From assembly GCA_963597235.1 (NCBI GenBank), contig CAVBPN010000129.1, positions 21,534 to 85,533 on the forward strand: a DNA stretch of 64,000 bases, read 5' to 3'. Positions 16,335-50,695 of this stretch are shown piece by piece; the first letter of the stretch is position 1, and each line of letters begins with the position of its first letter. Source of the stretch: a bacterium (GTDB lineage Bacteria; Bacillota; Clostridia; Lachnospirales; Lachnospiraceae). The position numbers were made by a program, and so were the translations under genes. The notes under the pieces are model-generated. The model had not been told where the DNA came from. It did no database searches and saw nothing but the letters and a program-made list of their open reading frames with translations.

Positions 16335-17165
16335 TTATTCTTTCTCATAAAGGAATTCTTCCGGCAGTGTTACCTTGAAATCCTTTGCAAGTGCACGGAA
16401 GTTATCCGGCTGGATTGTCTGCAGTTTATGTGGCGTCATGGAAAGGATCTTAACCAGGATCTCTGCGGATTTTTCTACTGTATGGAGCAGACCGAAGGTC
16501 AGGTCAAAGTCTTCTCCGGAGCAGAACATTCCATGATGTGCCCAGATGACTACATCATATTTTTTCATCAGTTCTGCAGTCTTTACTGCGATCTCTCTTC
16601 CACCAGGAACCATCCACGAAACAACTCCTACTCCATCCGGGAATACGACCGGGCACTCTGTTGCGGATTCCCAGAGCTCTCTGGTGAATATCTTATCATC
16701 CAGTGGGAGGACAAAGGTCAGTGCAATCGTATTTGTTGTATGTGCATGATAGATGACACGATGTTTTCCGTTTGTCAGTTTCTTCTTTACTTCATGGTTC
16801 ATCAGATGTGTCGGCAACTCACTGGTCGGTCTTCCACCTTCTACCAGTCCCCAGCGGATACGATAGTTAACGCCTTTATCATCCAGTTCAATGATCGCAA
16901 GACATACTTCCGGGTCTACGATGATGTTACGGAAATATTTGCCGCTTCCTGTTACAAGGAAGAATTCTCCGGCAAGCCCCGGTACCTCTGTTCCGATCGG
17001 TGTCCATTCTCCCAGTGCATTCAGACGTGGACGGATCATCTCAACTTCTTCTGTTTTCAGACGATAGCTTAAGTTTCCACCATTTCTTTCATGCCATCCC
17101 TGCAGGTAACCATCATTTGCCATCTTAATAAATCCCTGTACGAATTTTGTCTCTAAAATTTTCAT
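16335..17165 (-). CDS. rhaD: Rhamnulose-1-phosphate aldolase (class II aldolase)
   Basis: Matches E. coli RhaD along its full length as I recall it: FVQGFIKMANDGYLQGWHERNGGNLSYRL, VTGSGKYFRN, RPTSELPTHL, ECPVVFPDGVGVVSWMVPG, EKSAEILVK. Confidence 0.9.
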   Translation of the reverse strand: MKILETKFVQGFIKMANDGYLQGWHERNGGNLSYRLKTEEVEMIRPRLNALGEWTPIGTEVPGLAGEFFLVTGSGKYFRNIIVDPEVCLAIIELDDKGVNYRIRWGLVEGGRPTSELPTHLMNHEVKKKLTNGKHRVIYHAHTTNTIALTFVLPLDDKIFTRELWESATECPVVFPDGVGVVSWMVPGGREIAVKTAELMKKYDVVIWAHHGMFCSGEDFDLTFGLLHTVEKSAEILVKILSMTPHKLQTIQPDNFRALAKDFKVTLPEEFLYEKE

Positions 17166-19697: not shown

Positions 19698-19739
19698 AGA
19701 ACAAAAGGGCATATCCTGTTACCTGATGATATGCCCTTT
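19698..19739 (-). terminator. Intrinsic terminator closing the TRAP/catabolic operon
   Basis: AAAGGGCATATC (19704-19715) / GATATGCCCTTT (19728-19739) forms a 12-bp stem. The minus strand continues TTTTGTTCT. Confidence 0.7.
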
Positions 19740-19762
19740 AGCTCTTATATAAAAATATGATA

Positions 19763-20794
19763 TTATTTCTGCAGATATTTGTCAACCAGTTCGTCTCCTA
19801 CCTGCTCCCTTACTGCATCGCAGGTTCCCTGTGAAGCTTCACGCATCTCTGCGTACAGTTCTTCAGACGGAGTCACAACTTCTGTACCTGACGCCTCAAT
19901 AATATTAAGTCTGTCTTCAATTCTTTCGTCTGCCTGCTCTCTGGCATACTCTTTGGCAGCATCTGCCGCTTCTGTTATGATCTTCTGTTCTTCTTCATTC
20001 AGATCACCGAACAGTGACTCACTCATAAACAGCGTAATGTAATGTGGAAGATGGTTTGTCTCAATAATGTAGTCCTGCTGCTCATAGAGCTTACCAGACA
20101 CAATAACTTCAATAGGGTTCTCCTGTGCATCAATCGTTTTTTGCTGCAGTCCGATATATACTTCACTGAATGACATAGGTGTCGGGTTTGCCTTCAGTTC
20201 TTTCCAGAAGGACAGCTGGTTTGCATTTTCCATGGTTCGAACCTTCTGACCCTTAAAATCATCAATACTCTCAACCTTTACATTTGATGTCATTACACGA
20301 AATCCCTGGTCTGCTATACTCAGCAGCTGATATCCAGATTTATTATAGGCCTTATCCAGTTCTTCATAAAACTCCTTATCATCTACTGCATTTCGTGCCT
20401 CTTCAATGATTTCAAATGCACATGGGTAGTCAAAAACTGCTGTCTCCGGTATATAACTCACCTGTGGTGCCGGATTCTGTACAACAAACGCAATGTCACC
20501 TTCCTCGCAGCTTTCAAGAAGCTCAGAATCGTTTCCGATCGTTGAGTTCGGATAAATATCAATCGCCATCTCTCCGTTACTGCGGCTTGATACTTCTTCT
20601 GCAAATCTTTCTGCAAAAACCTGCGTTACTGTATCCTCCGGACTGCTTGTTCCCAATGCCCAGGTATGAGTCGCTTTCTCTTCTGTTGTTTCTGTTCCAC
20701 ATCCTGTAAGGCCGGAACAGACTGCAGACATTGCAATTATAACTGCCATAGCCGGTACTATATTTTTTCTGTTTATCTTTTTTTCTCTTATCAT
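19763..20794 (-). CDS. TRAP transporter substrate-binding protein (DctP family), lipoprotein
   Basis: Lipobox LTGCGTE. The 343-aa size and adjacency to DctM/DctQ genes support the call. Confidence 0.8.
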   Translation of the reverse strand: MIREKKINRKNIVPAMAVIIAMSAVCSGLTGCGTETTEEKATHTWALGTSSPEDTVTQVFAERFAEEVSSRSNGEMAIDIYPNSTIGNDSELLESCEEGDIAFVVQNPAPQVSYIPETAVFDYPCAFEIIEEARNAVDDKEFYEELDKAYNKSGYQLLSIADQGFRVMTSNVKVESIDDFKGQKVRTMENANQLSFWKELKANPTPMSFSEVYIGLQQKTIDAQENPIEVIVSGKLYEQQDYIIETNHLPHYITLFMSESLFGDLNEEEQKIITEAADAAKEYAREQADERIEDRLNIIEASGTEVVTPSEELYAEMREASQGTCDAVREQVGDELVDKYLQK

Positions 20795-20806
20795 ATACGA
20801 GCCCTC

Positions 20807-22093
20807 CTATAAAGCAAGGCTGATAGCCGGAATAAATGTGATCATCAACAGTGCAACAAGAAACAGAATGATCATCGGAACTGCTTTTTTTGCAATTTCT
20901 ACAACAGGTACACCTGTCAGAGATCCGGCAACAAACAGATTAACTCCAAGCGGCGGGGTAACAAATCCAATAGCCAGGTTGACTACCATCATGATGCCGA
21001 ACTGTGTCGGGTTCATGCCAATTTCTGTTATGATCGGAAGAAGGATTGGTGTTGTTATCAGAATTGCCGGACTTGTATCCATGACCATACCCACAAATAA
21101 CAGAAACAGATTGATTACCAGAAGAATAATTACCGGATTTGAGAAACTGTTTAAAATCCATCCACTGATTCCCTGCGGCACCTTCAGAAGTGTCAGAACT
21201 CTGGAAAATGCCGTGGATGCGATCAGGATCAGAAGTAATGGTCCGTATGTATGAACCGATTCGGACAAAATTGCCAGAATATCCTTTACTCTGAGGGATT
21301 TATAAATAACAAGACTTACAAAAAGTGCATAAAATACGGAAATTACCGCTGCTTCTGTCGGAGATGCGATTCCTCCATATATGCAGCCAAGAATAATAAC
21401 CGGTGTCAGGATCGCCCAGATTCCATCCTTCATCAGGTTCAGGAAACCTCTTTCTCTGAGTGCACTTACTACCTTATGGATATTTTCTTTATCTTCTCCA
21501 TGTCGCCAGCAATAGAACTTTGCATATCCCATCAGCAATACAGCAATAAGGATTCCCGGAACAATTCCTGCCTTAAACAGATTACCTACGGATTCGCCGG
21601 ATGCCATAGAAAACAGGATAAAAGGAATACTTGGAGGAATAATTACGCCCAGTCCTCCTGCCACGGCTACGATCGCTGTGGAAAATTTCTTGTCATAACC
21701 AAGATTTATAAGAATCGGTATTGTCATGCTTCCTACCGCTGCAACTGTTGCAGGTGCGGAACCTGAAATTGCCCCATAAAACAGGCACGTTATAACTACT
21801 GCGCACGGCATACCGGCTCTGAAATCTCCGATAAAATAGGTAAATACATCGAAAAGTTTTCTCGATACACCTCCGCGTGCCATGATAATTCCCGAAAGGA
21901 CGAACATCGGAATGGCGAGAAGCGGAAAACTGTCAAGACCTGTCAGCATCGAACGCAGTACGTAAGAAACGCTGCCGGTGAATTCGGGATTAATGAGTCC
22001 CGGAAAAACAGACGCAATTCCTACCGCAGTGGCAATCGGAACTGCTACGATCAGCAATACAAAAAATATAACAAAAACAATTATTCCCTGCAT
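20807..22093 (-). CDS. TRAP transporter large permease (DctM family)
   Basis: 428-aa polytopic protein whose start overlaps the DctQ-like stop by 13 nt. Confidence 0.85.
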   Translation of the reverse strand: MQGIIVFVIFFVLLIVAVPIATAVGIASVFPGLINPEFTGSVSYVLRSMLTGLDSFPLLAIPMFVLSGIIMARGGVSRKLFDVFTYFIGDFRAGMPCAVVITCLFYGAISGSAPATVAAVGSMTIPILINLGYDKKFSTAIVAVAGGLGVIIPPSIPFILFSMASGESVGNLFKAGIVPGILIAVLLMGYAKFYCWRHGEDKENIHKVVSALRERGFLNLMKDGIWAILTPVIILGCIYGGIASPTEAAVISVFYALFVSLVIYKSLRVKDILAILSESVHTYGPLLLILIASTAFSRVLTLLKVPQGISGWILNSFSNPVIILLVINLFLLFVGMVMDTSPAILITTPILLPIITEIGMNPTQFGIMMVVNLAIGFVTPPLGVNLFVAGSLTGVPVVEIAKKAVPMIILFLVALLMITFIPAISLAL

Positions 22094-22605
22094 GTTTCAC
22101 CCTCCTTCAGTTCTTTTATTTTTATCCAAATCTGCTGTAGAAGTCTGAACTCTGCCAGTACAAATCCCAGCAACGGTGCAGCCTGAAGAATCCACATCGG
22201 CATTCCCATTGCAGTACTTGTGCGTCCGCTTTCCAACACTTTAAAAAATGATGTGCATGCCTGAGGTATTAAATATCCAAAGAATACAGCCTCAATAATA
22301 TAATCCACACACAATATTAATGTTTTGGTTTTAAATGAAAATCCGGTAATAAACTGATCTATACGGATTGCGATCGTATTGCGTGCTGCGAAAGCAATAC
22401 TCAGAAAGCCACTCCAGACAAACAGATATCTGGTAAGCTCTTCACTCCATGAAATAGAATAATTAAAAAAATATCTTGCGACAACCTGTGCCCCCATTAC
22501 GATTGTCATTATTGAAAGAAGTATGATCATCACAGCTTCTTCAAAATATTCATTCAGCCATTTTATAGTTTTCACAAGGTCCTCCTTTTCTGAAACAGTC
22601 CCCAT
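22081..22605 (-). CDS. TRAP transporter small permease (DctQ family)
   Basis: 174 aa with 4 transmembrane helices, located immediately upstream of the DctM-like gene. Confidence 0.8.
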   Translation of the reverse strand: MGTVSEKEDLVKTIKWLNEYFEEAVMIILLSIMTIVMGAQVVARYFFNYSISWSEELTRYLFVWSGFLSIAFAARNTIAIRIDQFITGFSFKTKTLILCVDYIIEAVFFGYLIPQACTSFFKVLESGRTSTAMGMPMWILQAAPLLGFVLAEFRLLQQIWIKIKELKEGETCRE

Positions 22606-22625
22606 TACTGTTTCTGTACGACGCC

Positions 22626-23396
22626 CTATGCGCTCTCTTCCTCCTCCTTATGCAATGCATCCAGAATGTAATTAACTTCTTTTATTGACAGCTGTCCCGG
22701 TGCGGAACTTCTCAGCGTACTTCCAAATGTCAGAGATGATCCAAAAATCTCTCCACTGATACGACTGACTCCTCCCAGCCATCCCATTGACATAGTAATC
22801 AGCGGTCCATCTGCATGTACATTTGCATACTGATTAGTCGCAGACAGCAATGTCAGTACATCCTCTGCATTATGCGGCATTACGGCAACCTTTGGTACAT
22901 CACCGCCAAGTTCACGCATTTTGCACATTCTTTCAACGATAGTCTGATCATTTGGTGTTCTTTCAAAATCGTGACTTGATATAACAACAACACATCCATT
23001 CTGATGAGCATACTCACAGAACTCCCGGCATAACTCATCTCCCATGAACAACTCAATATCGATCAGATCTGCTGCTTTACCTGCAGCAATACTTTTATTT
23101 AAAGAAATATACTCTTCCAGAGAAATCGGATTTTCACCGCCCTCTGTTCTGTATGTAAACAGTACTGGCATTTCGCCTGCTGTTTCTCTGAGTTTTACTG
23201 CCATTTCAGCAGCTTTTCCACTTTTGTGAACATCTTCATAATAATCTACACGCCATTCGACCAGATCAGCACCTGCATCCTGTGCAAGCTTTGCTTCTTT
23301 CAGAATATCTGCTTCTGATTTTCCTGTGATCGGAACGCATACCTTCGGTCTGCCTTCTCCAAGCTTCATTCCTCTGATATTGATTGATTTTCTCAT
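22626..23396 (-). CDS. aroD: Type I 3-dehydroquinate dehydratase
   Basis: Has LVEWRVDYY, VVISSHDFERTP, VPKVAVMP (catalytic Lys context), PLITMSMG and SAPGQLS. The start is set at the ATG at 23396 after AAGGTGG, just past the upstream stop. Confidence 0.9.
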   Translation of the reverse strand: MRKSINIRGMKLGEGRPKVCVPITGKSEADILKEAKLAQDAGADLVEWRVDYYEDVHKSGKAAEMAVKLRETAGEMPVLFTYRTEGGENPISLEEYISLNKSIAAGKAADLIDIELFMGDELCREFCEYAHQNGCVVVISSHDFERTPNDQTIVERMCKMRELGGDVPKVAVMPHNAEDVLTLLSATNQYANVHADGPLITMSMGWLGGVSRISGEIFGSSLTFGSTLRSSAPGQLSIKEVNYILDALHKEEEESA

Positions 23397-23406
23397 ATTT
23401 TCCACC

Positions 23407-25428
23407 TTACCTGTTACTGAGATATCCATGTTTCCTTAAAGTTTTTAGAATGTTATGGCCTTCAGCGACACCTTCAATAATTCTGCGGGCACGTACACTG
23501 TCACCTACATTCATAATCTCGACTTTTTCTTCTGCTGCAAAAGCTTCTTCAAGCTCCTCAAGAACAGGACTTCTGGACTTCATTCCAAGACAGACGAAAC
23601 CATAGTCAAATGCATACTCTTTCAGTTCTCCATCCGGAGTTTTTACTGTAAAACTGTCTTTTCCTACTTTTGTCAGTGCAGTTTTTGGAAGCTCTGTGAC
23701 GTTATATTTCTCAATAATCTCTTTCATACGCAGTTTACTTACAGGATCAAGGTCTTTTCCAATCTGATCCATCATCTCAATAATCGTCACATCAGCACCA
23801 CGCGGTGCAAAAAATTCTACAACATCGAGTCCAACGGCACCACCGCCAACAACGACAACCTTCTTGCCGTCAAAGCTCTGTGGGAATCGGTCAATATTAT
23901 CAATCATTTTCAAAATAGAGTATACTTTGCTTCCATCCTTGTCGATCCAGTCATGCAGACCTTCGATCGGTGGCAGCAGTGGCAGAGATCCTGTTGCATT
24001 GACAATAATATTCGGCTTAAGGCATTTCACAAACTTTGCAGTAGCTTCTGTCCCTGTAAATGTATACAGGTTCGGAAGATTTTCGGCACGAACTGTCAGA
24101 TAATCAACAAAATCATGGATTCTCTTCTTGTCCGGTATTTTGCTGATCAGAGACGCCAGTCCGCCCAGCTCCTCTTTCTTCTCCAGCAGGAATGTCTGAC
24201 ATCCTGCTTCTGCCGCTGTACATGCAGCCTCCATTCCGGCTGTTCCGCCACCAATAACAACCACATTACATGGTTTTGATACTTTTTCTTCTGTGCACCA
24301 TTCATTTACTGTCGGGTTTACAGTACATCGAATTGGTGTATTCTGTGCCAGACGATGTCCCGCGCATCCAATATTGCAGGAAATACATTTACGAATTGTA
24401 CATTCCTCACCAAACTCTACTTTGTTTACCCAGTTCGGATCTGCGATGAGTCCACGTCCCATTCCGATAAAATCAGCATCTCCATTTTCCAGTATTTCTT
24501 CCGCTCTCTTTGGCGAACGGATATTTCCGGTCGTGATCGTCGGCTTTCCAAATTTCTCTTTCACTGCTCTGGACATATAAGATCTCCAGCCGTCTTCCAG
24601 CTGACAACTGTCGATTTGATACTGAAGGGAACTGTTCAGACCTGCAGAAACATCGATGACATCTGCTTCTTTTTCAAAATATGTCAGAAGTTCCAGTGTG
24701 TCCTCCAGTGTATTTCCGCCTTCAATCAGTTCGTCTGCACTGATTCTGCAGAAAATCGGAAAAAATGATCCAACCTGTTTCCTCACTTCTTCCATTACCA
24801 TTTTTGCAAAACGTGCCCGATTCTCCGGACATCCTCCGAATTCATCTGTACGCTTATTCATACTTGGTGATAAAAACTGACTGATCAGGTACCCATGACC
24901 GGCATGCACCTCAACTGCATCAAATCCAGCTGCCTGTGCACGCTTCGCAGCTTCACCATATTTTTTTACGATTTCCAGAATTTCTTCCTTTGTCAGCGGA
25001 CGTGGAACGGATCCGCCTGGCTTTGATGGAACATCTGATGCAGATACTGTCTGCATTCCGATTCTTTTATCCATTGCTGACGCGCCTGCATGATTCAGCT
25101 GCACCGCAATACATGTTCCATACTGGTGTACTGTTTCACATAATTTATAGAATCTCGGGATGTAATTATCATGATCAATTCGTATTTGCGTAGTTCCATT
25201 GGAACCCAGAGGGAAATCAACACAGGCATTTTCGACAATGATCATTCCAACGCCGCCCTGTGCACGCTGTTCATAATAATCCATATGAAGAAAACTCATT
25301 TCTCCGTTCTGCTCACCATAGTTGGTTCCCATCGGAGCCATAGACACTCGATTCTTCACAGTCATTCTTCGAATTGTAACTGATTCAAACAATTTTGGAT
25401 ATTTTTCACGTTTCTTCATTTTGGCCAT
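23407..25428 (-). CDS. 2-enoate reductase / 2,4-dienoyl-CoA reductase-type flavoenzyme (OYE FMN domain + 4Fe-4S + FAD/NAD(P) domain)
   Basis: 673 aa. OYE-like N-terminus (NRVSMAPMGTNY, QLNHAGA, VEVHAGHGYLISQFLSP). Cys cluster CISCNIGCAGHRLAQNTPIRC. Two Rossmann motifs (VIGGGTAGMEAA and VVGGGAVGLDV). Confidence 0.85.
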   Translation of the reverse strand: MAKMKKREKYPKLFESVTIRRMTVKNRVSMAPMGTNYGEQNGEMSFLHMDYYEQRAQGGVGMIIVENACVDFPLGSNGTTQIRIDHDNYIPRFYKLCETVHQYGTCIAVQLNHAGASAMDKRIGMQTVSASDVPSKPGGSVPRPLTKEEILEIVKKYGEAAKRAQAAGFDAVEVHAGHGYLISQFLSPSMNKRTDEFGGCPENRARFAKMVMEEVRKQVGSFFPIFCRISADELIEGGNTLEDTLELLTYFEKEADVIDVSAGLNSSLQYQIDSCQLEDGWRSYMSRAVKEKFGKPTITTGNIRSPKRAEEILENGDADFIGMGRGLIADPNWVNKVEFGEECTIRKCISCNIGCAGHRLAQNTPIRCTVNPTVNEWCTEEKVSKPCNVVVIGGGTAGMEAACTAAEAGCQTFLLEKKEELGGLASLISKIPDKKRIHDFVDYLTVRAENLPNLYTFTGTEATAKFVKCLKPNIIVNATGSLPLLPPIEGLHDWIDKDGSKVYSILKMIDNIDRFPQSFDGKKVVVVGGGAVGLDVVEFFAPRGADVTIIEMMDQIGKDLDPVSKLRMKEIIEKYNVTELPKTALTKVGKDSFTVKTPDGELKEYAFDYGFVCLGMKSRSPVLEELEEAFAAEEKVEIMNVGDSVRARRIIEGVAEGHNILKTLRKHGYLSNR

Positions 25429-25440
25429 TCCCCTTTCTGA

Positions 25441-26268
25441 TTAAGCGCGGCACTCTCCTAACTCTTCGGCACAATAGGAATAGATATCATAGTGTTTCAG
25501 TAACTCCAGACCTTTTCTTAAATCTGTATCATAATCATCAAAAGTATTTGCCTCATATGAAATATAACCCTTGTAGGAAATATTTTTCAGAGTCTCAAAT
25601 AATTTTCCATAGTTAAAACCATCCCAGAGCATCGGCACACGTCTTTCCGGGAACGCAAATTTCGGATTATCAACATGTACATGTTTGATAAAATCGGCAT
25701 ACTCTTCAATCACTGAATAATCATGACCGCCTTCTACGAACCATCTGAAGTCCAGAAGTGTCTTCAGATTTTTACAGCCCAGTTTTTTCGCATACTGATA
25801 AGCTTCCGGAATACTGAGAACAGAATTACAGATAGCAGAAGCCAGCGGCTCCATCATGATCGTAATATTATACTGCTGAGCAATTTCACATAATTTCACG
25901 ATCAGTTCGTCATTTTTCTTTGCTGCCTCTTCTCTTTCTTCTCCTTCGGGAAGACTTCTCGTCTTCCCGTTTCCATATACGAAATATCTTGCTCCCATGC
26001 GGGCTGTACGGTCTACTGCCTGTTTCAGATATTCTGTATAATATTCCATATCAAATTTCTTATCAGCAATTACTACATCCAGTGGAAGGGGATTATCAAA
26101 AACTTCGCTTGCAAGACCGGAATCTTTTATTTTTTTTCTGGCTTTCTGGAATTCCAGATCATCAAAAGACATGATCTCTTTAATATGAAGTTCGATTCCA
26201 TCATATCCTGCTGCTGCAATCCGGTCTGCCTCATTCACAAATCCAAAATGACTTGTTTTCATCTTCAT
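25441..26268 (-). CDS. Sugar phosphate isomerase/epimerase (xylose-isomerase-like TIM barrel) family protein
   Basis: 275 aa. GYDGIELH...MMEPL...H.H.DN...SYE is a pattern typical of the AP_endonuc_2 family. The substrate cannot be inferred. Confidence 0.65.
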   Translation of the reverse strand: MKMKTSHFGFVNEADRIAAAGYDGIELHIKEIMSFDDLEFQKARKKIKDSGLASEVFDNPLPLDVVIADKKFDMEYYTEYLKQAVDRTARMGARYFVYGNGKTRSLPEGEEREEAAKKNDELIVKLCEIAQQYNITIMMEPLASAICNSVLSIPEAYQYAKKLGCKNLKTLLDFRWFVEGGHDYSVIEEYADFIKHVHVDNPKFAFPERRVPMLWDGFNYGKLFETLKNISYKGYISYEANTFDDYDTDLRKGLELLKHYDIYSYCAEELGECRA

Positions 26269-26289
26269 AGCTCTTACCCCCTGTTCTGA

Positions 26290-27345
26290 TTAATCATTCT
26301 TAAGAATTACTTTTACTTCTTTTGAATGTCCGGATACCAGATCTTCAAATCTTTCCTGTACCTGGCTCATTGGAACTGTAGATGTGATCAGTTTCTTGAG
26401 ATCCAGTTTTCCTTCTTCGATCATTTTCGGAATCTCATAAAGTTCATCTACATAGCAGTAGCTGCCTTTTAATTTCATTTCATGAGCAACTGCATATTTA
26501 TATTCAAATCCATCCATATGCTCTGTTGCCATACCGATCATTGCGATTTCGCCGCCATTCTTAACCATCTTCATGCTTGTATTCAGGCTGACAGCAATTC
26601 CGACACAGTCTGCACCGGCATCAGCACCTTTGCCACCTGTGATTTCCATTACTTTTTCGACCGGATCCACATCCTTTGAATTAATTACATAGGAAGCTCC
26701 GCACTCTAAAGCTTTTTTCAGACGTTCTTCATTCAGGTCGATACTGATGACGTCCTTTGCTCCAAGATATTTCAGACATTCCAGTGCCAGAAGACCGATC
26801 GGACCTGCTCCAAATACTGTAACTGTTTTGTCTTTAACATCACTTAACATCTTAACTCCACGAAGAGCTACAGATGTAGGCTCGAACATAGATCCTTCTT
26901 CAAAGCTGATCTTGTCAGAAATCGGAATCAGCTTATTTGCCGGAACTACAACATAATCTGCCATTGCTCCATCATATCCGCCAGCCGGCATTGTGGTTCC
27001 TGGAATAAAACGCTCTTCGCAGAGGTTTGGAAGTCCTGCCAGACAGTCTGGACATTTTCCACATGGAATGTTTGGATAAACTACAACTCTTCCGCCTACC
27101 GGTACTTCCGGATTCTGCACATCATCACCATATTTGTCTACTATTCCTGAGAACTCATGTCCCATTACCAGAGGAGCAACCCGCATTGCACTTGTTCCTT
27201 TAAATCCGCCTGTATCAGATCCACAGATAGATACTGCTTTTACTTTAATTCTTACCTGTCCTTTTCCCGGTTCCGGTACATCTCTTTCCTGTTCTTCAAT
27301 TTTGAAAGGTGCTACATAACAATATGCTTTCATTTTAACGCTCAT
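26290..27345 (-). CDS. Zn-dependent alcohol/polyol dehydrogenase (MDR family)
   Basis: ICGSD...GHEFSG is a catalytic Zn site, CGKCPDC a structural Zn site, and VFGAGPIGLL a Rossmann motif. RBS AGGAGG. Confidence 0.85.
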   Translation of the reverse strand: MSVKMKAYCYVAPFKIEEQERDVPEPGKGQVRIKVKAVSICGSDTGGFKGTSAMRVAPLVMGHEFSGIVDKYGDDVQNPEVPVGGRVVVYPNIPCGKCPDCLAGLPNLCEERFIPGTTMPAGGYDGAMADYVVVPANKLIPISDKISFEEGSMFEPTSVALRGVKMLSDVKDKTVTVFGAGPIGLLALECLKYLGAKDVISIDLNEERLKKALECGASYVINSKDVDPVEKVMEITGGKGADAGADCVGIAVSLNTSMKMVKNGGEIAMIGMATEHMDGFEYKYAVAHEMKLKGSYCYVDELYEIPKMIEEGKLDLKKLITSTVPMSQVQERFEDLVSGHSKEVKVILKND

Positions 27346-27403
27346 AGTAAAAATCCTCCTGTCTTATAAAATACTAAACCCCATTTGTTATATTTTAAAT
27401 TTT

Positions 27404-28435
27404 TTATTCACATGAAATCTGAACCTTGATCTCGTCATTATCCGGTGTACACAGAATATCGAATGCTTTCTTTCCATCCTCCAGTGGGAATGTAGATGTG
27501 ATCAGATCTTCTACAACCAGTTTTCCATCTGCAAGCATCTGTGCTGCTTCTTTCATTTCTGTTGTAAACATATAACTTCCCATGAATGTAAGTCCACGGC
27601 CTACGATTTCCATAGGATCAATTTCTACTTTTGCATGAGCAAGTGCAACTAATACGCTTGTTCCACCATTTTTAACCATCTCAAAAGACTGGTTGATCAG
27701 AAATTCTCCTGCTGCATTGATTACACGATCTGCACCATATCCGTCTGTCAGCACTTTTACAGCTGCTACTGCGTCTTCTTTCTTTGAGTTGATCACATGA
27801 TCTGCGCCACATTCTTTAGCTTTTTCCAGTCGTTTGTCAATGATATCTGACACAATAACATTTTCAACGCCAAGTGCTTTCAGGAATTTTACGATCAGAA
27901 GTCCGATCGGGCCGGCTCCAAGAACTACTGTGTTTTTTTCTTCTGATGTAAGTCCTTTCTTTGCACATGCAAGAGTTACACCACATGGCTCAAGAAGTGC
28001 CGCTGACTCGTAAGATACATTATCTGCGATCGGAACTACCATCCAGTCCGGAACTGTCACGTACTCTCTCATTGCTCCATCTGTCTGTGTTCCTCCGATT
28101 GCGGTTCCAAGGCTCTTTCTGTTTCCACAGAGGTTTCCTTCTCCTCTTTTACAGAAATAGCAGTCATTGCACAGCACCATCGGATTTACAGTTACTCTCT
28201 GTCCTTTTTTCAGGGATGTAACACCCTCTCCGACTTCTGTGATGTCTCCGGAAAACTCGTGTCCTAATATAAGTGGCGGCATAAATCTGTCAGACGCATG
28301 TCTGTATGCCCCAAGATCTGAACCACAGATAGAAACTTTTTTAATCTTGATCTGTACCTCTCCTTTTTTTGGTGAAGGGATTTCTCTATCCTGGACTTCT
28401 AACGCTCCAGGTCCCTGATATACGAGTGCTTTCAT
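27404..28435 (-). CDS. Zn-dependent alcohol/polyol dehydrogenase (MDR family), second paralog
   Basis: The start is set at the ATG at 28435 (MKALVYQGPG). Has ICGSD, GHEFSG, CNDCYFCKRG and VLGAGPIGLL. Confidence 0.85.
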   Translation of the reverse strand: MKALVYQGPGALEVQDREIPSPKKGEVQIKIKKVSICGSDLGAYRHASDRFMPPLILGHEFSGDITEVGEGVTSLKKGQRVTVNPMVLCNDCYFCKRGEGNLCGNRKSLGTAIGGTQTDGAMREYVTVPDWMVVPIADNVSYESAALLEPCGVTLACAKKGLTSEEKNTVVLGAGPIGLLIVKFLKALGVENVIVSDIIDKRLEKAKECGADHVINSKKEDAVAAVKVLTDGYGADRVINAAGEFLINQSFEMVKNGGTSVLVALAHAKVEIDPMEIVGRGLTFMGSYMFTTEMKEAAQMLADGKLVVEDLITSTFPLEDGKKAFDILCTPDNDEIKVQISCE

Positions 28436-28571
28436 TGTCTCAATCCTTCTTTCTTTTATTTTATCCATACAGCTCTCTTCAGACAGCCGAACTGTGCGGA
28501 GGTCTTGCATATCATGATCGGGTTATTATCACAACAGTAAGCAGTCCGACAGTCTGAAGAATGCTGTATGG

Positions 28572-28609
28572 TTTTTCTGCGGCTTCTCATAAGGGAAGCC
28601 GCAGAAAAA
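28572..28609. repeat. Perfect 15-bp inverted repeat (hairpin) without a 3' U-tract
   Basis: TTTTTCTGCGGCTTC (28572-28586), an 8-nt loop, then GAAGCCGCAGAAAAA (28595-28609). On either strand the T-run precedes the stem and the A-run follows it. Confidence 0.7.
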
Positions 28610-28676
28610 TTAAGTAGAGCAGGTAATTTAATATGGGAATTTATTCAGTTATTGTATTTTTATATTTCTGTTTTAA

Positions 28677-29639
28677 TTAGCATGGCCATGCAATTGTGTA
28701 GATGTGTTTTCCGCCATGTGTAGGTCCTTTAAGAAGCTTTTCGATTTCTTCTGGATCTCTCTGGCTCATATATTTTGCATCCGGAAGTACTCCTGGAGGG
28801 CAAGCTTCAAGGATATCATGATGCAGTTTTACAAGATAATCGCAAACCTTTTCGATGCAGGCTGTTGCTTTCTTCGGATCAGCTTCTGTTGCATGTCCAA
28901 GCACACCCTGTGGTGCTGTTACACATTCGATACCAGCATTACCAACTACGCAGTGTCCTGGGATCGGGTTTCCATAGATATCACCGCCACGGTCAACATG
29001 TCCTGCCGGAAGAATTCCGTGTACATCTGTATCTTCTGCATGTTCCATATCGCAGTATTCCGGGAAGAGTGCAAGAGAAATACTCTGTTCTGCCTCGCAC
29101 GCATGCTGGAATGGTCTGTTGAATGGTCCGCCATGCTCTTTGTCCATCAGAGTCTGCGCCATTACTCGTGGAAGGTCTACGAAATAGATCATTGCCGGAA
29201 CCTGATATTTTTTACCCCATTCCTGAATAGCAACCGGAAGTGAGTATTCCTGTCCATGCATACTGATAAAGATCATTTTACGGAATCCTGTGTTCCAGAA
29301 TCCTGTGATGATAGCTCTGAGGAAAGAGCAGAATACATCGTCCGGAAGCGGGATTGTACAAGGCTGTCCGATATGATGGAATGGATGTGAACCATACCAT
29401 ACTGGTTCAGCTACTGTACAGCCAACCTTCTCTGCTACCATTTCTGCGATACGTGAAACAATAAATGTATCCTCACCGATCGGACCGGAGTTACCATGGT
29501 TTTCTGTTGAACCTACCGGAATAATGATTACATCATCTTTTTCCAGTCTCTGCTCAACATCTCTTTTTGTCATTGTCTGATAATACATTTTGTTTGCGGA
29601 CTCCATCTGTCCTGCGTTTGGGAATTTCCATTCTGCCAT
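28677..29639 (-). CDS. Creatininase (creatinine amidohydrolase) family protein
   Basis: The start is set at the ATG at 29639 after AAGGAGGAAG. IIIPVGSTENHG...GED...HGQ matches my recollection of the family. Confidence 0.75.
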   Translation of the reverse strand: MAEWKFPNAGQMESANKMYYQTMTKRDVEQRLEKDDVIIIPVGSTENHGNSGPIGEDTFIVSRIAEMVAEKVGCTVAEPVWYGSHPFHHIGQPCTIPLPDDVFCSFLRAIITGFWNTGFRKMIFISMHGQEYSLPVAIQEWGKKYQVPAMIYFVDLPRVMAQTLMDKEHGGPFNRPFQHACEAEQSISLALFPEYCDMEHAEDTDVHGILPAGHVDRGGDIYGNPIPGHCVVGNAGIECVTAPQGVLGHATEADPKKATACIEKVCDYLVKLHHDILEACPPGVLPDAKYMSQRDPEEIEKLLKGPTHGGKHIYTIAWPC

Positions 29640-29732
29640 TGTTTCTTCCTCCTTAAAATAATTAATTCTTTTTACTTTCATAGGTTTATATCATGAATGG
29701 ACCAGGCCATTATGAACTTAAGTTAATAATTG

Positions 29733-30650
29733 TCACGCTTTCTGCAGTGCTCTTATTCTCTGCTGGTAGCTGTCTGTTCCAACACCTTTCACCAGCTTTA
29801 TGATTTTTTCTCCGGCTACCATGATCTTTTCAAAATCCATTCCTGTTTCAATTCCCATTGAATCCAGCATGAAAAGAACATCCTCAGTTGAAATATTTCC
29901 TGTTGCCCCTTTGATATAAGGACATCCGCCAAGTCCTGCCAGTGAAGTATCTATTTTATCGATTCCAGCTTCCATTGCTGCAATTACATTTGCAAGTCCC
30001 ATGCCTCTTGTATTATGCATATGAAGCATCCAGTCCATCTCCGGAAAATCTTCCCTCAGCTGCATCGTTCTCTCGTATACCATCTTTGGTGTTCCAAGTC
30101 CTGCCGAATCAGAAAGAGAAACCTGTGTTGCACCTGCATCTGCAAAAGCTTTTACAATATCCTTGATCAGTTCATAAGGAAGCACACCTTCCCACTGAGA
30201 TGCAAATGGTAATGAAATGGAACCAGCAAATCCCATGTTATTATCTCTCGCGATCTGCCCGGATTCTGCAAAAGTCTTCATGGATTCCAGCGGTGATCTT
30301 CCGGCTCCGGCTTTATTGTGTTCCATACTTGCGGATACATTTAATTTTATTTTCTCGCATCCGCACGCTGCTGCCCGTCTTACATCATCCGGAAGATATA
30401 CCAGACCTCTGTATTCAACCTCATCTTTTTTATGAAGCTTCTCAAAGACCTTGTCGGTATCTTTCATCTTGTACATAGTTTCATAGGTGGAAAAAGCCCC
30501 AACCTCAACACATTTACATCCTGCATCAACTACTTCCTCGACGATTCTTACCTTCTCTTCCACCGAATAAATTTCCGGTGCTGTCTGAAATCCATCTCGA
30601 GTAACCACTTCACAGAGTGTTACCTTTTCAGGAAAAATCTTTTTCGTCAC
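29733..30650 (-). CDS. HMGL-like (hydroxymethylglutaryl-CoA lyase family) aldolase/lyase
   Basis: Has EVVTRDGFQ, HMHNTRGMGLAN and LAGLGGCPYIKGATGNISTEDV, which are signatures of HMG-CoA-lyase-type TIM barrels. Confidence 0.8.
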   Translation of the reverse strand: MTKKIFPEKVTLCEVVTRDGFQTAPEIYSVEEKVRIVEEVVDAGCKCVEVGAFSTYETMYKMKDTDKVFEKLHKKDEVEYRGLVYLPDDVRRAAACGCEKIKLNVSASMEHNKAGAGRSPLESMKTFAESGQIARDNNMGFAGSISLPFASQWEGVLPYELIKDIVKAFADAGATQVSLSDSAGLGTPKMVYERTMQLREDFPEMDWMLHMHNTRGMGLANVIAAMEAGIDKIDTSLAGLGGCPYIKGATGNISTEDVLFMLDSMGIETGMDFEKIMVAGEKIIKLVKGVGTDSYQQRIRALQKA

Positions 30651-30730
30651 TTTTTTGCTCCATCCTTTCTTTATTTTCTGTTTATTTGTTATTTTATTAA
30701 CTCTTTTTCTGTTATGTATCGCTTGTATAT

Positions 30731-30746
30731 AACTGATACATCAGTT
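30731..30746. promoter_or_regulatory. Palindromic operator candidate AACTGATACATCAGTT upstream of the HMGL-like gene
   Basis: 7-bp arms around AC, located 85-100 nt upstream of the ATG at 30650. It shares CTGAT(GT/AC)ATCAG with the GntR upstream site. Confidence 0.5.
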
Positions 30747-30839
30747 AGTGTAAAAAAAATCGATTTTAATGTGCAGAGGAGAAAACAATAACTGCTCATA
30801 AAATATTCACAGTAACCTGCTCCTCTCTGCCCCTGTTTC

Positions 30840-31472
30840 TTATACGCCTATGCGTACATACCCTTCTCGCATCCTCTGGATCGCATCCTTTGTATGCCTG
30901 TGTATCACCTGAACAGCCTCATCGTATCTGCCCTCATCTATGAGTCTCATAAACTTTCTGTGTTCCTCGATCGGTACCTTACTGTGTTCTGTAGCTACGC
31001 TGTTAGAAGCAGCACGATACTGACTTCTTATATTCTCATAGAATTCAGATAACTTCTTGTTGTTCATAAGATTGATCATGTAACAGTGAAATTCCGAATC
31101 GACTTCACTGTATTTCGCAAAGTCACCTTTATTCAGAGCTTCTTCCTGCTCATCTATCTTCTTTCTTAATATTGCTTTATCATCGTCCGTAAGGTGAGGG
31201 ATCACGATCGGGAGAACATACTGCTCAACGCATTCCCTGCTCTGATAAATATCAGTGATATCTCTCAGATCCATCCGAACTGTGAAAAAACCAACTTTCG
31301 GAACCAGTCTTAACATTCCTTCAGCATGGAGCTTTAAAAGCGCCTCTCTGGTAGGTGTATAACTGAAGTTTAATTCTTCAGCACACTTTCTCACACTGAA
31401 GAAGGTATCAGGTTCAGCTTCCAATATCAGTTCTTTCAGACGTTCATAAGCCTGTTCACTTCTTGATGCCAT
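30840..31472 (-). CDS. GntR family transcriptional regulator (FadR/FCD subfamily)
   Basis: The N-terminal winged HTH is ERLKELILEAEPDTFFSVRKCAEELNFSYTPTREALLKLHAEGML. The C-terminal domain is all-helical. Confidence 0.85.
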   Translation of the reverse strand: MASRSEQAYERLKELILEAEPDTFFSVRKCAEELNFSYTPTREALLKLHAEGMLRLVPKVGFFTVRMDLRDITDIYQSRECVEQYVLPIVIPHLTDDDKAILRKKIDEQEEALNKGDFAKYSEVDSEFHCYMINLMNNKKLSEFYENIRSQYRAASNSVATEHSKVPIEEHRKFMRLIDEGRYDEAVQVIHRHTKDAIQRMREGYVRIGV

Positions 31473-31507: not shown

Positions 31508-31530
31508 CTGATGTATCAATAATACATCAG
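31508..31530. promoter_or_regulatory. Inverted repeat CTGATGTA-N7-TACATCAG upstream of the GntR gene
   Basis: 8-bp perfect arms at 31508-31515 and 31523-31530, located 36-58 nt upstream of the GntR ATG. Confidence 0.5.
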
Positions 31531-31597
31531 TTTTGTTATGTTGTAAATTGGCAGAATAGATGATATATTTTATCATTTTTTATGCAATTCTACCAAC

Positions 31598-31633
31598 AAA
31601 AGCTGTGAACATCTTACTGACATTCACAGCTTT
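31598..31633 (-). terminator. Intrinsic terminator after the DUF362 gene
   Basis: AAAGCTGTGAA / TTCACAGCTTT forms an 11-bp stem. The minus strand continues TTTTGTTGG. Confidence 0.65.
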
Positions 31634-31739
31634 CATTCTAACTTATATTTCTTATCTTTGTCAAAAAATATTCAATGATGATGCATCTCATGCATTGTCC
31701 ATATATTCCTGCCGAAAACTCTTATCATCCACACCTGTG

Positions 31740-32864
31740 TCATTTTATTCTCTTCAGCTCATATTCTCTGGTTCCAAGACCAACCTTCTCTGCCTGATCA
31801 AGTGTTGCTTTCCATTCGATATTTGGATTGCAATCTTTAAAATGATCGTGATGACAGTGCCATCCAGGTTCTGCCAGATGTTCTCCAAGCTGGCTGTTCT
31901 CAATCGGTGTAGCCTTCAGACAGGCATCTGCACATGCCTGATCCAGTGCAACCGGATCAAAGCTTGCGAACATTCCGATATCCGGAAGGATCTGTGCATC
32001 GTTCTCTCCATGGCAGTCACAGTTCGGACTGATATCCTGAACCAGTGCAACATGAAAATGTGGGCGGCCATGACAGACTGCCTGTGCATATTCTGCCATT
32101 TTGCGATCGAGAAGTTCATTTGCACTGTCATTTTGATTGTATACAGCATCAAAACTGCAGGCTCCGATGCAGCGTCCACAGCCCTTACACTTATCATAAT
32201 CAATAACTGCTTTTTTATTTACATAAGTAATCGCATCACTTCCACATTCTTTTGCACAACGACGGCAGCCACGACAGACATCTTTATTGATCGCCGGTTT
32301 TCCACTTGCATGCTGCTGCATCTTTCCTGCACGGCTTCCGCATCCCATACCGATATTCTTGAGTGTTCCACCGAATCCGGTCATCTCATGTCCTTTAAAA
32401 TGAGTCAGACTGATAAAAATATCTGCATCCATGATTGCATGTCCAATCAATGCAGTCTTGCAATACTCTCCATTTACAACCGGAACTTCTACTTCATCTG
32501 TTCCACGCAGTCCATCTCCAATAATAATCTGACATCCTGTTGTGATCGTATTAAATCCGTTCAGATTCGCACAATCCAGATGTTCCAGTGCATTCTTCCT
32601 GCTTCCCGGATACAGTGTATTACAGTCTGTCAGAAACGGCTTACCACCCTGCTCTTTACACAGATCAGCAGCTACTTTTGCATAGTTTGGACGAAGAAAA
32701 GCCATATTTCCCAGTTCACCAAAATGCATTTTGATCGCTACAAATTTTCCATCCATATCAATATCTTTGATGCCAGCTGCAATACAGAGTTTTTTCAGCT
32801 TGTCAAGCCGGCTGGTTCCCACAGGACAACGAAAATCTGTAAAATAAACAGTCGATTTTTCCAT
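31740..32864 (-). CDS. DUF362 domain protein with 2x[4Fe-4S] ferredoxin insert
   Basis: MEKSTVYFTDFR...VAIKMHFGE...FLTDCNTLY is DUF362-like, and CRGCRRCAKEC plus CKGCGRCIGAC are ferredoxin motifs. Confidence 0.75.
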   Translation of the reverse strand: MEKSTVYFTDFRCPVGTSRLDKLKKLCIAAGIKDIDMDGKFVAIKMHFGELGNMAFLRPNYAKVAADLCKEQGGKPFLTDCNTLYPGSRKNALEHLDCANLNGFNTITTGCQIIIGDGLRGTDEVEVPVVNGEYCKTALIGHAIMDADIFISLTHFKGHEMTGFGGTLKNIGMGCGSRAGKMQQHASGKPAINKDVCRGCRRCAKECGSDAITYVNKKAVIDYDKCKGCGRCIGACSFDAVYNQNDSANELLDRKMAEYAQAVCHGRPHFHVALVQDISPNCDCHGENDAQILPDIGMFASFDPVALDQACADACLKATPIENSQLGEHLAEPGWHCHHDHFKDCNPNIEWKATLDQAEKVGLGTREYELKRIK

Positions 32865-32890
32865 TTTAATCCCTCCTGAAGATGATTTGT

Positions 32891-50420: not shown

Positions 50421-50657
50421 TTCGTTCCCTCCTGCTTATAGCAACAACTATAATTTTTGCTTTTCCTCCGATAAGTTTTTTCCGCAAAATCCTTATCTGT
50501 TAATGCTATTCTATATCAAAGAAGAGTAGATCTGCGTCTGTTATTTTCCGATTCGTATATACTATCTTACTGTGATTTTATATTTTGTTACATCCATTCT
50601 CTCTATATATTGTATTTCATTCTTTGCAATGCTATATTGACTGTAAGAAAAAATCAT

Positions 50658-50678
50658 CCGGAATTTCAAAAATTCCGG
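50658..50678. promoter_or_regulatory. 21-bp palindrome CCGGAATTT-CAA-AAATTCCGG just upstream of the RACo-like gene
   Basis: 9-bp perfect arms ending 18 nt before the ATG at 50696. Confidence 0.5.
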
Positions 50679-50695
50679 CAGAAGGGATTCTTCAA

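Follow-up and report, generated by a model that had tools for sequence, protein, structure and literature searches.

What can be the function of an operon in which a transporter for acids, two alcohol dehydrogenases and a dehydroquinase stand beside a creatininase-like hydrolase and a lyase of the 3-hydroxy-3-methylglutaryl-CoA (HMG-CoA) lyase type? This question is raised by a stretch of 64,000 nucleotides from a member of the Lachnospiraceae (contig CAVBPN010000129.1, assembly GCA_963597235.1), hereafter the window. A preliminary description of this DNA had reported 11 co-directional minus-strand genes, and the list of open reading frames (ORFs) indeed holds exactly 11 on that strand, with the same coordinates, between positions 19763 and 31472 (Table 1). 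Gene families were assigned with Pfam and NCBIfam profile models. According to our analysis, the substrate of the cluster is quite probably quinate/shikimate. By a narrow balance, we further favor the view that the genes form a GntR-controlled operon for oxygen-independent quinate/shikimate catabolism, in which the ring would be cleaved hydrolytically; the chemistry is predicted throughout.

The reading of the cluster changes with the creatininase-like protein. The preliminary description had recognized its fold correctly but had left its role unplaced. Among the models of the Thermotoga inositol pathway that were used (NF041097, NF041098 and NF041099), the protein covers the full length of NF041098, the model for 3-dehydro-scyllo-inosose hydrolase (IolN), and scores 531.5 bits against a cut-off of 245; this membership means that the cluster holds a ring-opening enzyme. 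The IolN of the Thermotoga inositol pathway hydrolyzes a C–C bond of a cyclic 2-hydroxy-1,3-diketone and thereby opens the ring. The residues E60, H62, D71, H142 and E196/E198 of the creatininase fold (PF02633), which we take to be the binuclear metal ligands by analogy to creatininase, are invariant in 12 diverse orthologues. By analogy with IolN, we propose that the window hydrolase opens the ring of 3,5-didehydroquinate, a cyclic 1,3-diketone.

Besides its hydroxyls at C3, C4 and C5, quinate has a tertiary C1(OH)(COOH). In the proposed pathway, the acid would be imported by the lipoprotein DctP together with the membrane subunits DctQM of a tripartite ATP-independent periplasmic (TRAP) transporter. 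The alcohol dehydrogenase ADH1 is proposed to act first on quinate/shikimate, forming the 3-dehydro compound; with quinate, oxidation of the C3 hydroxyl would give 3-dehydroquinate, a step that an AroE/YdiB-type enzyme could perform in sister clusters. ADH2, the proposed second dehydrogenase, would then oxidize the C5 hydroxyl of 3-dehydroquinate to 3,5-didehydroquinate, a cyclohexane-1,3-dione with a hydroxyl between the ketones, which would have the 2-hydroxy-1,3-dione motif in common with 3-dehydro-scyllo-inosose. Addition of water over a C–C bond by the IolN-type metallohydrolase would yield the citrate-like 3-carboxy-3,6-dihydroxy-5-oxohexanoate, HOOC-CH2-C(OH)(COOH)-CH2-CO-CH2OH. This compound would have the skeleton of HMG-CoA, with COOH for CH3 and CH2OH for SCoA, and the HMG-CoA-lyase-like (HMGL-like) enzyme is proposed to split the tertiary carbinol of the opened ring into oxaloacetate and hydroxyacetone. 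At the side of this sequence, the dehydroquinase AroD would join shikimate-derived 3-dehydroshikimate to 3-dehydroquinate, an ene-reductase (ER) might reduce the enone of 3-dehydroshikimate as an electron sink or side branch, and the epimerase- or isomerase-like protein with a triosephosphate isomerase (TIM) barrel would work with ADH2.

Comparative genomics carries much of this proposal. A scan of the genome collection with the hydrolase returned 440 relatives, the best 80 loci of which were analyzed by tblastn and ORF clustering, with contig views of 10 kb to either side (loci are designated L001 and so on). Among these 80 loci, the gene set of the window was found only in Lachnospiraceae (L001–L010 and L046), namely in Blautia, Faecalicatena faecalis, F. 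orotica, Hespellia and Robinsoniella, with the gene order mostly kept. The conservation of the neighborhood, which the preliminary description had proposed to check, thus extends to at least 11 lachnospiraceal loci, and this recurrence indicates that the arrangement is not due to chance. Across genera, IolN is 93–100%, the HMGL-like protein 85–95% and AroD 51–66% identical. Two loci, L003 and L085, form a mosaic with respect to the window: their IolN is 98–99% identical, and its neighbors range from 51% (AroD) to 91% (ADH2), which suggests recombination or module exchange within the Lachnospiraceae.

In about 60 of the 80 loci, the hydrolase (64–83% identical) belongs to a fixed block of GntR, an RraA-like protein, Ldh_2, an aldehyde ferredoxin oxidoreductase (AFOR), a small cupin and IolN. 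These loci are distributed over the Bacillota, Chloroflexota, Planctomycetota, Spirochaetota, Desulfobacterota and NC10, and their carriers include Thermovenabulum, Fervidicola, Thermovorax, Desulfosporosinus, Anaerolineae, Planctomycetes, Spirochaetes/Treponema, Desulfobacterota/Syntrophia and NC10. The block is accompanied by a TRAP transporter and two dehydrogenases, either a pair of Zn-dependent ADHs or a short-chain dehydrogenase/reductase (SDR) with one ADH, and often by the ADH2–TIM pair. With 219 bits (cut-off 179), the RraA-like protein is recognized by NF006731, an equivalog model for 4-carboxy-4-hydroxy-2-oxoadipate (CHA) aldolase/oxaloacetate decarboxylase. The predicted product of the hydrolase would be CHA with CH2OH in the place of the terminal COOH, and in these distant clusters a ketol isomerase (the cupin or the TIM barrel), AFOR or an aldehyde dehydrogenase, and Ldh_2 could convert it into CHA, which the CHA aldolase would split into pyruvate and oxaloacetate. 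Five loci without AFOR carry an NAD-type aldehyde dehydrogenase instead, and this exchange indicates that aldehyde oxidation is a real part of the pathway. The redox count of the predicted route, quinate + 2 H2O -> pyruvate + oxaloacetate + 8[H], would match the four oxidoreductases. In two metagenome-assembled genomes of Oscillibacter (L015 and L016), the hydrolase (79–80% identical) is flanked by a CitMHS carrier, CitD-like, CitE and CitF proteins and the same SDR; the CitD-like protein is without the prosthetic-group serine. By gene content, the steps after the hydrolase may here be taken over by a citrate-lyase-like system, the third arrangement of this kind.

The presence of three unrelated systems for the cleavage of tertiary carbinols (CHA aldolase, HMGL-like and citrate-lyase-like) beside one hydrolase points to a product resembling citrate, HMG and CHA, and thus to retention of the C1(OH)(COOH) of quinate. 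Such a choice of lyases would be expected because the predicted intermediate is an analogue of citrate and of HMG as well as CHA-like. The broader proposal is more tentative, and we hold it slightly nearer to doubt than to belief: hydrolytic cleavage of the quinate/shikimate ring may be widespread, with a core of the IolN-type hydrolase, two dehydrogenases and an acid transporter and with three types of lyase according to lineage, so that gut Lachnospiraceae would convert dietary quinic acid (from the chlorogenates of coffee and fruit) into oxaloacetate and hydroxyacetone, which some strains could process onward to propionate/propanol via a glycyl-radical microcompartment.

The HMGL-like protein misses the cut-off of the HMG-CoA lyase family (NF004283, 224.6 bits versus 246) and passes only the broad Pfam model. 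In the alignment with human HMGCL (2cw6; 154 bits), the RDG motif, the Glu, the HxH (HmH), the GGCPY motif and the Asn are all kept; a Pro stands at the position of K48, and the C-terminal segment falls outside the alignment. We assume that K48 and the C-terminal segment are CoA-contacting parts of HMG-CoA lyase. No CoA ligase or CoA transferase was found among the cluster genes with Pfam and NCBIfam. Hydroxyacetone is the enolate fragment to be expected because the cleavage would mirror that of HMG-CoA by HMG-CoA lyase, and oxaloacetate would be the other fragment. The HMGL and IolN genes directly adjoin in the window and in at least 13 other loci, and HMGL orthologues of at least 74% identity are abundant in gut metagenomes.

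Hydroxyacetone is a classical substrate of GldA. In one lineage (L082, L087, L089 and L090), the HMGL orthologue occurs in a cluster that runs into GldA and then a glycyl-radical microcompartment, the HMGL gene being directly followed by GldA except in L089, where the order is HMGL, IolN, ADH2, TIM, DctQMP, GntR, GldA and the bacterial microcompartment (BMC) with the glycyl-radical enzyme (GRE). The GldA of these loci scores 505 bits with the glycerol/1,2-propanediol dehydrogenase model and the GRE belongs to the dehydratase family (809 bits). The microcompartment locus also encodes an activase, BMC shell proteins, a SAM synthetase, PduS-like and PduL-like proteins and an aldehyde dehydrogenase. 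We found no description of a microcompartment locus with a quinate-type feeder module of this kind. As the window encodes neither GldA nor a GRE, hydroxyacetone would be handled elsewhere or excreted in the window organism.

A very abundant gut species (L084, with the HMGL orthologue P0143, present in 519 blocks of the collection) keeps only GntR, HMGL, ER and AroD. These four genes were considered as a self-sufficient module, which was rejected, since the ER is frameshifted and has lost residues 149–185; we see in this locus the probable remnant of a cluster in decay.

The nature of the substrate is indicated mainly by the TRAP receptor. The lipobox of DctP is expected for a Gram-positive receptor. 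Its R166 and R186 align to R127 and R147 of SiaP, the arginines that bind the carboxylate, and both are kept in all 50 of the 50 DctP proteins linked to related clusters, which indicates that the substrate is an acid. The nearest solved receptors are sialic-acid binders (about 158 bits), and none of them has a hydroaromatic ligand. On the basis of these alignments we propose DctP as a putative quinate/shikimate receptor. The conserved arginines, AroD and the AroE/YdiB-type genes of sister clusters agree with the preliminary description, in which a cyclitol carboxylate of the quinate/shikimate type had been suggested; it remains the best candidate.

The oxidizing role that had been ascribed to the two ADHs is likewise supported. 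They are 40% identical to each other, and neither reaches the cut-off of the IolM model (450 bits): ADH1 scores 194 bits with it and 215 bits as a Tdh-like protein, and ADH2 scores 182 bits. ADH2 orthologues (45–64% identity) adjoin the TIM-barrel gene in Thermovenabulum, Anaerolineae, Planctomycetes and Spirochaetes, and the same adjacency holds for all lachnospiraceal variants that have the TIM barrel, except L091. Genes for an AroE/YdiB-family shikimate/quinate dehydrogenase (SDH) and a major facilitator superfamily (MFS) carrier are present in L003, L085/L086, L087, L089 and L091. L089 carries the SDH-family gene and lacks ADH1, and this replacement indicates that two dehydrogenases per hydrolase are maintained.

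The preliminary description had also considered the TIM barrel as a possible dehydroshikimate dehydratase, to be compared with AsbF and QuiC. This assignment did not hold. The best NCBIfam matches are IolO (52 bits, cut-off 300), psicose epimerase (40 bits) and hydroxypyruvate isomerase (35 bits), all far below the cut-offs, and the best match in the Protein Data Bank (PDB) is D-tagatose 3-epimerase (phmmer, E=1e-7). The PDB-wide phmmer search returned only ketose 3-epimerases and sugar isomerases, with no AsbF/QuiC dehydroshikimate dehydratase among them. The functions of dehydroshikimate dehydratase and of an IolE-type dehydratase were therefore rejected, as neither the NCBIfam nor the PDB search gave such a match, and aromatization is left without a genetic basis here. 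By its best matches, the protein appears to resemble ketose 3-epimerases/ketol isomerases.

As had been supposed, the putatively catabolic operon includes a genuine dehydroquinase, AroD: in addition to passing its family model, it scores 284 bits with the AroD of C. difficile (3js3), was also aligned to 3l2i, and has both the catalytic His (sHDF) and the Schiff-base Lys (pKvavmP). In the ER, the Oxidored_FMN domain of the old yellow enzyme (OYE) type occupies residues 12–340 and is followed by a CxxCxxxCx12C motif for the 4Fe-4S cluster and by Pyr_redox_2 at residues 388–626. The protein falls outside the characterized groups that were tested, BaiCD (466 bits versus 825), BilR (364 versus 750), FadH and NCR, and its best PDB matches, NCR (6qkg) and FadH (1ps9), reach only 232 and 227 bits. 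From its domain composition, the earlier suggestion of a 3-dehydroshikimate reductase seems plausible. The ER adjoins AroD in most lachnospiraceal variants that carry both (L087 being an exception), and L089 has the ER with no AroD in view. Both genes are absent from the approximately 60 distant clusters and from L082 and L090, an absence that makes both look accessory to the cleavage of the ring. For AroD, the simplest role would be to link shikimate to the quinate route by hydration of 3-dehydroshikimate to 3-dehydroquinate; the ER, by analogy, would most plausibly reduce the 2-cyclohexenone of 3-dehydroshikimate as an electron sink.

Several observations weigh against this pathway. The NCBI curated model names the hydrolase a 3-dehydro-scyllo-inosose hydrolase. 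One locus (L094) has no TRAP transporter and carries an Opp-type ABC transporter, two GFO/IDH/MocA (IolG-like) dehydrogenases and a second TIM barrel. Three loci (L082, L087 and L090) have the arrangement ADH2-TIM-HMGL-GldA-GRE, with no IolN within the visible 10 kb. Immediately upstream of the L085 cluster is a gene that fuses chorismate mutase and shikimate kinase. In addition, the scheme assigns the ER only a side role, though the operon has ER and AroD at its center, and it leaves the TIM barrel without a necessary role despite its pairing with ADH2 in all variants but L091. Some of these points would be met if the main flux passed through AroD and the ER, from 3-dehydroshikimate to 3-oxo-4,5-dihydroxycyclohexane-1-carboxylate, then by ADH2 to 3,5-dioxo-4-hydroxycyclohexane-1-carboxylate ("dihydrogallate") and by IolN to 3-carboxy-6-hydroxy-5-oxohexanoate. 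Such a route would explain the central and mostly adjacent position of the two genes, would employ a 2-cyclohexenone, the classical type of OYE substrate, and would come nearer to redox neutrality, which suits a fermenter. Its product, however, would have no tertiary hydroxyl and hence would be no substrate for lyases of the HMGL, CHA-aldolase or citrate-lyase types; moreover, IolN orthologues that are 81–83% identical occur in clusters with neither AroD nor ER, and L082 and L090 retain ADH2-TIM-HMGL in the absence of both. We therefore regard this route as unlikely. The loci without IolN could be explained in either of two ways, by an IolN encoded elsewhere in those genomes or by an HMGL-like enzyme that opens the ring alone. 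In the latter case, the enzyme would act as a retro-aldolase on 3-dehydroquinate or 3,5-didehydroquinate and cut C1–C2, the final reaction of dehydroquinate synthase run backward; the TIM barrel and a second aldol cleavage would give hydroxyacetone, and IolN would work in parallel. DRE-TIM lyases are known to pair a 2-oxoacid electrophile with an enolate, the open-chain 1-deoxy-ketose product would be a natural substrate for a TIM barrel resembling ketose 3-epimerases, and in L090 nothing but ADH2-TIM-HMGL precedes GldA and the GRE microcompartment, a set to which L082 and L087 add an SDH-family gene. Against this stand the immediate adjacency of HMGL and IolN in so many loci, the span of the contig views, beyond which an IolN may lie, and the lack of an encoded hydrolase for the resulting formylpyruvate/acylpyruvate; a role as retro-aldolase is, in our estimate, distinctly unlikely.

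The preliminary description had envisaged uptake, oxidation by the ADHs and dehydration by AroD, followed by aromatization or reductive saturation of an uncleaved ring. AroD and an ene-reductase are indeed present, and lactobacilli reportedly reduce quinate/shikimate to dihydroshikimate and dihydroxycyclohexane carboxylate (Whiting and Coggins). The TIM barrel is, however, epimerase-like with no detectable similarity to AsbF/QuiC, C–C cleavage is indicated by the association with CHA aldolase, citrate lyase and GldA/GRE, and end products of the cyclohexane carboxylate or aromatic kind would leave unexplained the IolN-type hydrolase and the HMGL-like lyase, which are the best conserved genes and which comparative genomics places at the center of the system. 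Thus, the substrate class, the oxidizing ADHs and the real AroD of that interpretation stand, whereas aromatization or saturation and a core role for AroD and ER do not, and metabolism with an intact ring appears very improbable. Least probable of all is a Thermotoga-type pathway for myo-/scyllo-inositol with analogues of IolM, IolN and IolO, to which AroD, ER and the TRAP transporter would be merely adjacent. The score with NF041098, the appearance of IolM and IolO among the top NCBIfam matches of the ADHs and the TIM barrel, and the IolG-like genes and ABC transporter of L094 speak for it; in L094, whose genes otherwise form a cluster of the RraA-Ldh_2-cupin-IolN type, another cyclitol may enter the common lower pathway. 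The failure of both ADHs and the TIM barrel to reach the IolM and IolO cut-offs argues against inositol, as do the carboxylate-binding arginines in all linked receptors, and AroD and SDH-family genes are integral to the operon. The window cluster, which has no GFO/IolG gene and whose transporter is of the acid-type TRAP family, offers no inositol-pathway context (IolM, IolO, IolG, an inositol transporter or uronate genes). In a search of 1.84 billion representatives, the clade of the window hydrolase formed one cluster at 50% identity, and the next full-length clusters, including the "3-dehydro-scyllo-inosose hydrolase" of Thermococcus, were 36–40% identical. The protein of T. barophilus (L092, P0406) is 40% identical to that of the window and scores 348 bits with NF041098, in comparison to about 530 for the TRAP-linked clade. 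Its gene lies between a true IolM (561 bits, cut-off 450) and another Zn-dependent ADH, followed by genes for UxaA-like, PfkB (KdgK-like) and DHDPS-family aldolase proteins, which is a context for the conversion of inositol to uronate. Judged by their sequences, the TRAP-linked and inositol-context clades are homologous but distinct, and the curated name of IolN has probably been over-extended to a clade with a different substrate.

The window operon and the block found in distant phyla may share their regulation. The GntR/FCD gene heads both the lachnospiraceal and the distant RraA-type clusters, and its product is a probable repressor of the cluster, judging from its family. A spaced inverted repeat lies upstream of this gene, and its half-site also occurs upstream of GntR in L084, L089 and L001. 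The perfect palindrome CTGATGTATCAG in the GntR–HMGL intergenic region has 13 matches in the window at no more than two mismatches, versus 6.3 expected; a related motif is located just upstream of HMGL in L001, L003, L084, L085 and L089 and directly after the GntR gene in Thermovenabulum (L081). The CTGAT-n2-ATCAG motif and the spaced repeat are candidate GntR/FCD operators, and the recurrence of the motif in sister loci and in Thermovenabulum suggests a regulator–effector logic in common.

Table 1. Genes and signals of the cluster, in window positions (scores are those of profile models)
Feature	Position	Strand	Basis
Intrinsic-terminator-like hairpin closing the operon, 3' of dctP	19699..19745	-	Folding; U-rich tract UUUUGUUCU comes next
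TRAP solute-binding lipoprotein DctP	19763..20794	-	Pfam DctP 244 bits; lipobox LTGC
TRAP large membrane subunit DctM	20807..22093	-	Pfam DctM 363 bits
TRAP small membrane subunit DctQ	22081..22605	-	Pfam DctQ 93.5 bits
Type I 3-dehydroquinate dehydratase AroD	22626..23429	-	TIGR01093 232.5 bits, cut-off 139.3
Ene-reductase ER, 673 aa (OYE-type FMN domain, 4Fe-4S, FAD/NAD(P)H domain)	23407..25428	-	Oxidored_FMN 272 bits, Pyr_redox_2 94 bits
Xylose-isomerase-like TIM barrel	25441..26268	-	Pfam AP_endonuc_2 98 bits
Zn-dependent alcohol dehydrogenase ADH2	26290..27345	-	Pfam/NCBIfam
Zn-dependent alcohol dehydrogenase ADH1	27404..28510	-	ADH_N, ADH_zinc_N domains
Strong hairpin between IolN and ADH1	28572..28609	-	dG -24.4 kcal/mol, z about -8.9; no U-tract on sense strand
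IolN-family creatininase-fold metallohydrolase, 320 aa from likely start	28677..29681	-	NF041098
HMG-CoA-lyase-like DRE-TIM metallolyase, 305 aa	29733..30650	-	Pfam HMGL-like (PF00682) 156 bits
Operator-like perfect palindrome CTGATGTATCAG (CTGAT-n2-ATCAG), GntR–HMGL intergenic region	30733..30744		0 mismatches, minus strand
GntR/FCD-family transcriptional regulator, 210 aa	30840..31472	-	Pfam FCD 69 bits, GntR 36 bits
Operator-like palindrome CTGATGTAT-n5-ATACATCAG upstream of GntR gene	31508..31530		Motif scan

The cluster region is 99–100% identical to that of uncultured Blautia genomes (L001 and L010). A terminator closing the operon had been placed at 19704–19739, and folding confirmed it as a slightly longer hairpin (about 19699–19745; dG -23.2 kcal/mol, z -6.4) that is followed by a U-rich tract; the consensus terminator scan had failed on it because its loop has 12 nt. 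The two gene blocks are set apart by a 167-bp spacer with a strong hairpin of its own. Since an A-run follows this hairpin on the sense strand and a U-run precedes it, it could be a terminator for antisense transcription only, and it may serve as an attenuator, an mRNA stabilizer or a processing element that splits the operon mRNA. Homologue lengths and alignments place the starts of IolN, ADH1 and AroD 14, approximately 14–25 and 11 codons inside the longest ORFs, so that the true starts are probably located downstream of the longest-ORF starts, at about 29639, 28435–28468 and 23396, respectively.

As had been noted earlier, the window holds no other gene of aromatic biosynthesis: tblastn detected no homologues of AroE, AroK or chorismate mutase in its 64 kb, and Pfam scans (with NCBIfam for some) found no aro gene among the approximately 30 other ORFs. 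Likewise, tblastn gave no window copy of the glycyl-radical enzyme, GldA, RraA, Ldh_2, AFOR, cupin, CitF or further aro genes. Two ORFs were considered as additional members of the system and were rejected. The 790-aa ORF at 43946–46318 is a GH31 glucosidase. The plus-strand ORF at 31560–32879 (439 aa), a candidate for a divergent cluster gene, has no Pfam match and shows the Cys-rich composition typical of antisense translation; the true gene is probably the minus-strand ORF that overlaps it (31740–32864), which encodes a DUF362 protein with a 4Fe-4S ferredoxin domain but lacks conservation at other loci. A class II aldolase/adducin-family protein of 276 aa (16335–17165, minus strand) is encoded 2.6 kb beyond the operon terminator, from which it is separated by a MatE exporter and a gene with a tRNA-editing domain, and no sign of its membership in the cluster was found. 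At 47592–52156, a 942-aa fusion of a methyltetrahydrofolate:corrinoid methyltransferase with a corrinoid-binding domain stands beside a divergently transcribed gene for a RACo-type reductive activator; methyl-transfer systems of this kind are typical of acetogenic Blautia.

The proposed pathway can be compared with several known systems. The inositol pathway of Thermotoga maritima, reportedly described by Rodionova et al. in 2013 with IolG, IolM, IolN and IolO, has a similar logic, with two cyclitol dehydrogenations to a 2-hydroxy-1,3-diketone, a creatininase-fold hydrolase and an epimerase-like TIM barrel alongside. It differs in that the substrate of the window cluster is predicted to be a carboxylate, IolG is absent, the ADHs and the TIM barrel stay below the IolM/IolO cut-offs, and C–C lyases for a tertiary carbinol stand downstream in place of the uronate pathway. 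Aerobic use of quinate/shikimate by the qui/qsu/qa systems also involves oxidation to 3-dehydroquinate/3-dehydroshikimate and a catabolic dehydroquinase, and AroE/YdiB-type enzymes are found in the sister clusters; the aerobic route, however, continues through dehydroshikimate dehydratase to protocatechuate and a dioxygenase, whereas the window cluster has none of these, and hydrolysis at the alicyclic stage is proposed. The RraA-like protein of the distant clusters recalls the CHA aldolase (LigK/GalC) of protocatechuate 4,5-cleavage, with the same predicted products, pyruvate and oxaloacetate. In contrast to that route, strict anaerobes would here derive CHA from an alicyclic acid, through hydrolysis and a further three steps of oxidation/isomerization, and the window has an HMGL-like lyase instead.

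With HMG-CoA lyase (2cw6; YngG of B. subtilis, 1ydo), the window protein shares the fold and the catalytic and metal residues, and its proposed substrate would have the HMG skeleton, in which a tertiary carbinol with a carboxymethyl group is placed beta to a carbonyl; unlike HMG-CoA lyase, it lies below the family cut-off, and a free keto-acid is its predicted substrate, with hydroxyacetone as the leaving enolate. Dihydrophloroglucinol cyclohydrolase and the cyclohexane-1,3-dione hydrolase of resorcinol fermentation likewise pass through a 1,3-diketone and its O2-free retro-Claisen hydrolysis, but they belong to another enzyme family with other substrates, and these systems reduce a phenol, whereas the window cluster would oxidize a polyol. 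The AroD–ER pair matches the reductive metabolism of quinate/shikimate in lactobacilli, said to have been described by Whiting and Coggins in the 1970s, in which quinate is converted through dehydroquinate and dehydroshikimate and the C=C bond is then reduced. That pathway ends in saturated cyclohexane carboxylates, with its genes unassigned, and in the window cluster it would be a branch of a ring-cleaving operon.

Strict anaerobes living solely on quinate/shikimate are known, according to the part of PMC9041414 in which Brune and Schink (1992) is cited, and Ilyobacter insuetus (2002) is cited as a strictly anaerobic quinate/shikimate fermenter in a passage of PMC10512730. In the full-text literature, we found no account of the cluster, of the proposed pathway, of 3,5-didehydroquinate or of an association of creatininase, RraA and AFOR. 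To our knowledge, no genes or enzymology of anaerobic quinate/shikimate fermentation have been described. Overall, all of the enzyme families and the strategy of diketone hydrolysis were already known; what seems to be new is the class of substrate, the reaction of the lyase and the set of modular variants.

If the proposed pathway is correct, it would provide a route and marker genes for anaerobic use of quinate/shikimate in six or more phyla. New names would be needed for hundreds of "3-dehydro-scyllo-inosose hydrolases," "HMG-CoA lyases" of anaerobes that do not degrade leucine and "CHA aldolases" of organisms without aromatic ring cleavage, and the C–C hydrolases of the creatininase fold would gain a new substrate class. 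Few alicyclic acids are as abundant in plants as quinate and shikimate, and gram amounts of them reach the colon as chlorogenic acids. In gut Lachnospiraceae, the pathway would tie dietary quinic acid to short-chain fatty acids (propionate via propanediol), beyond its role as a precursor of hippurate.

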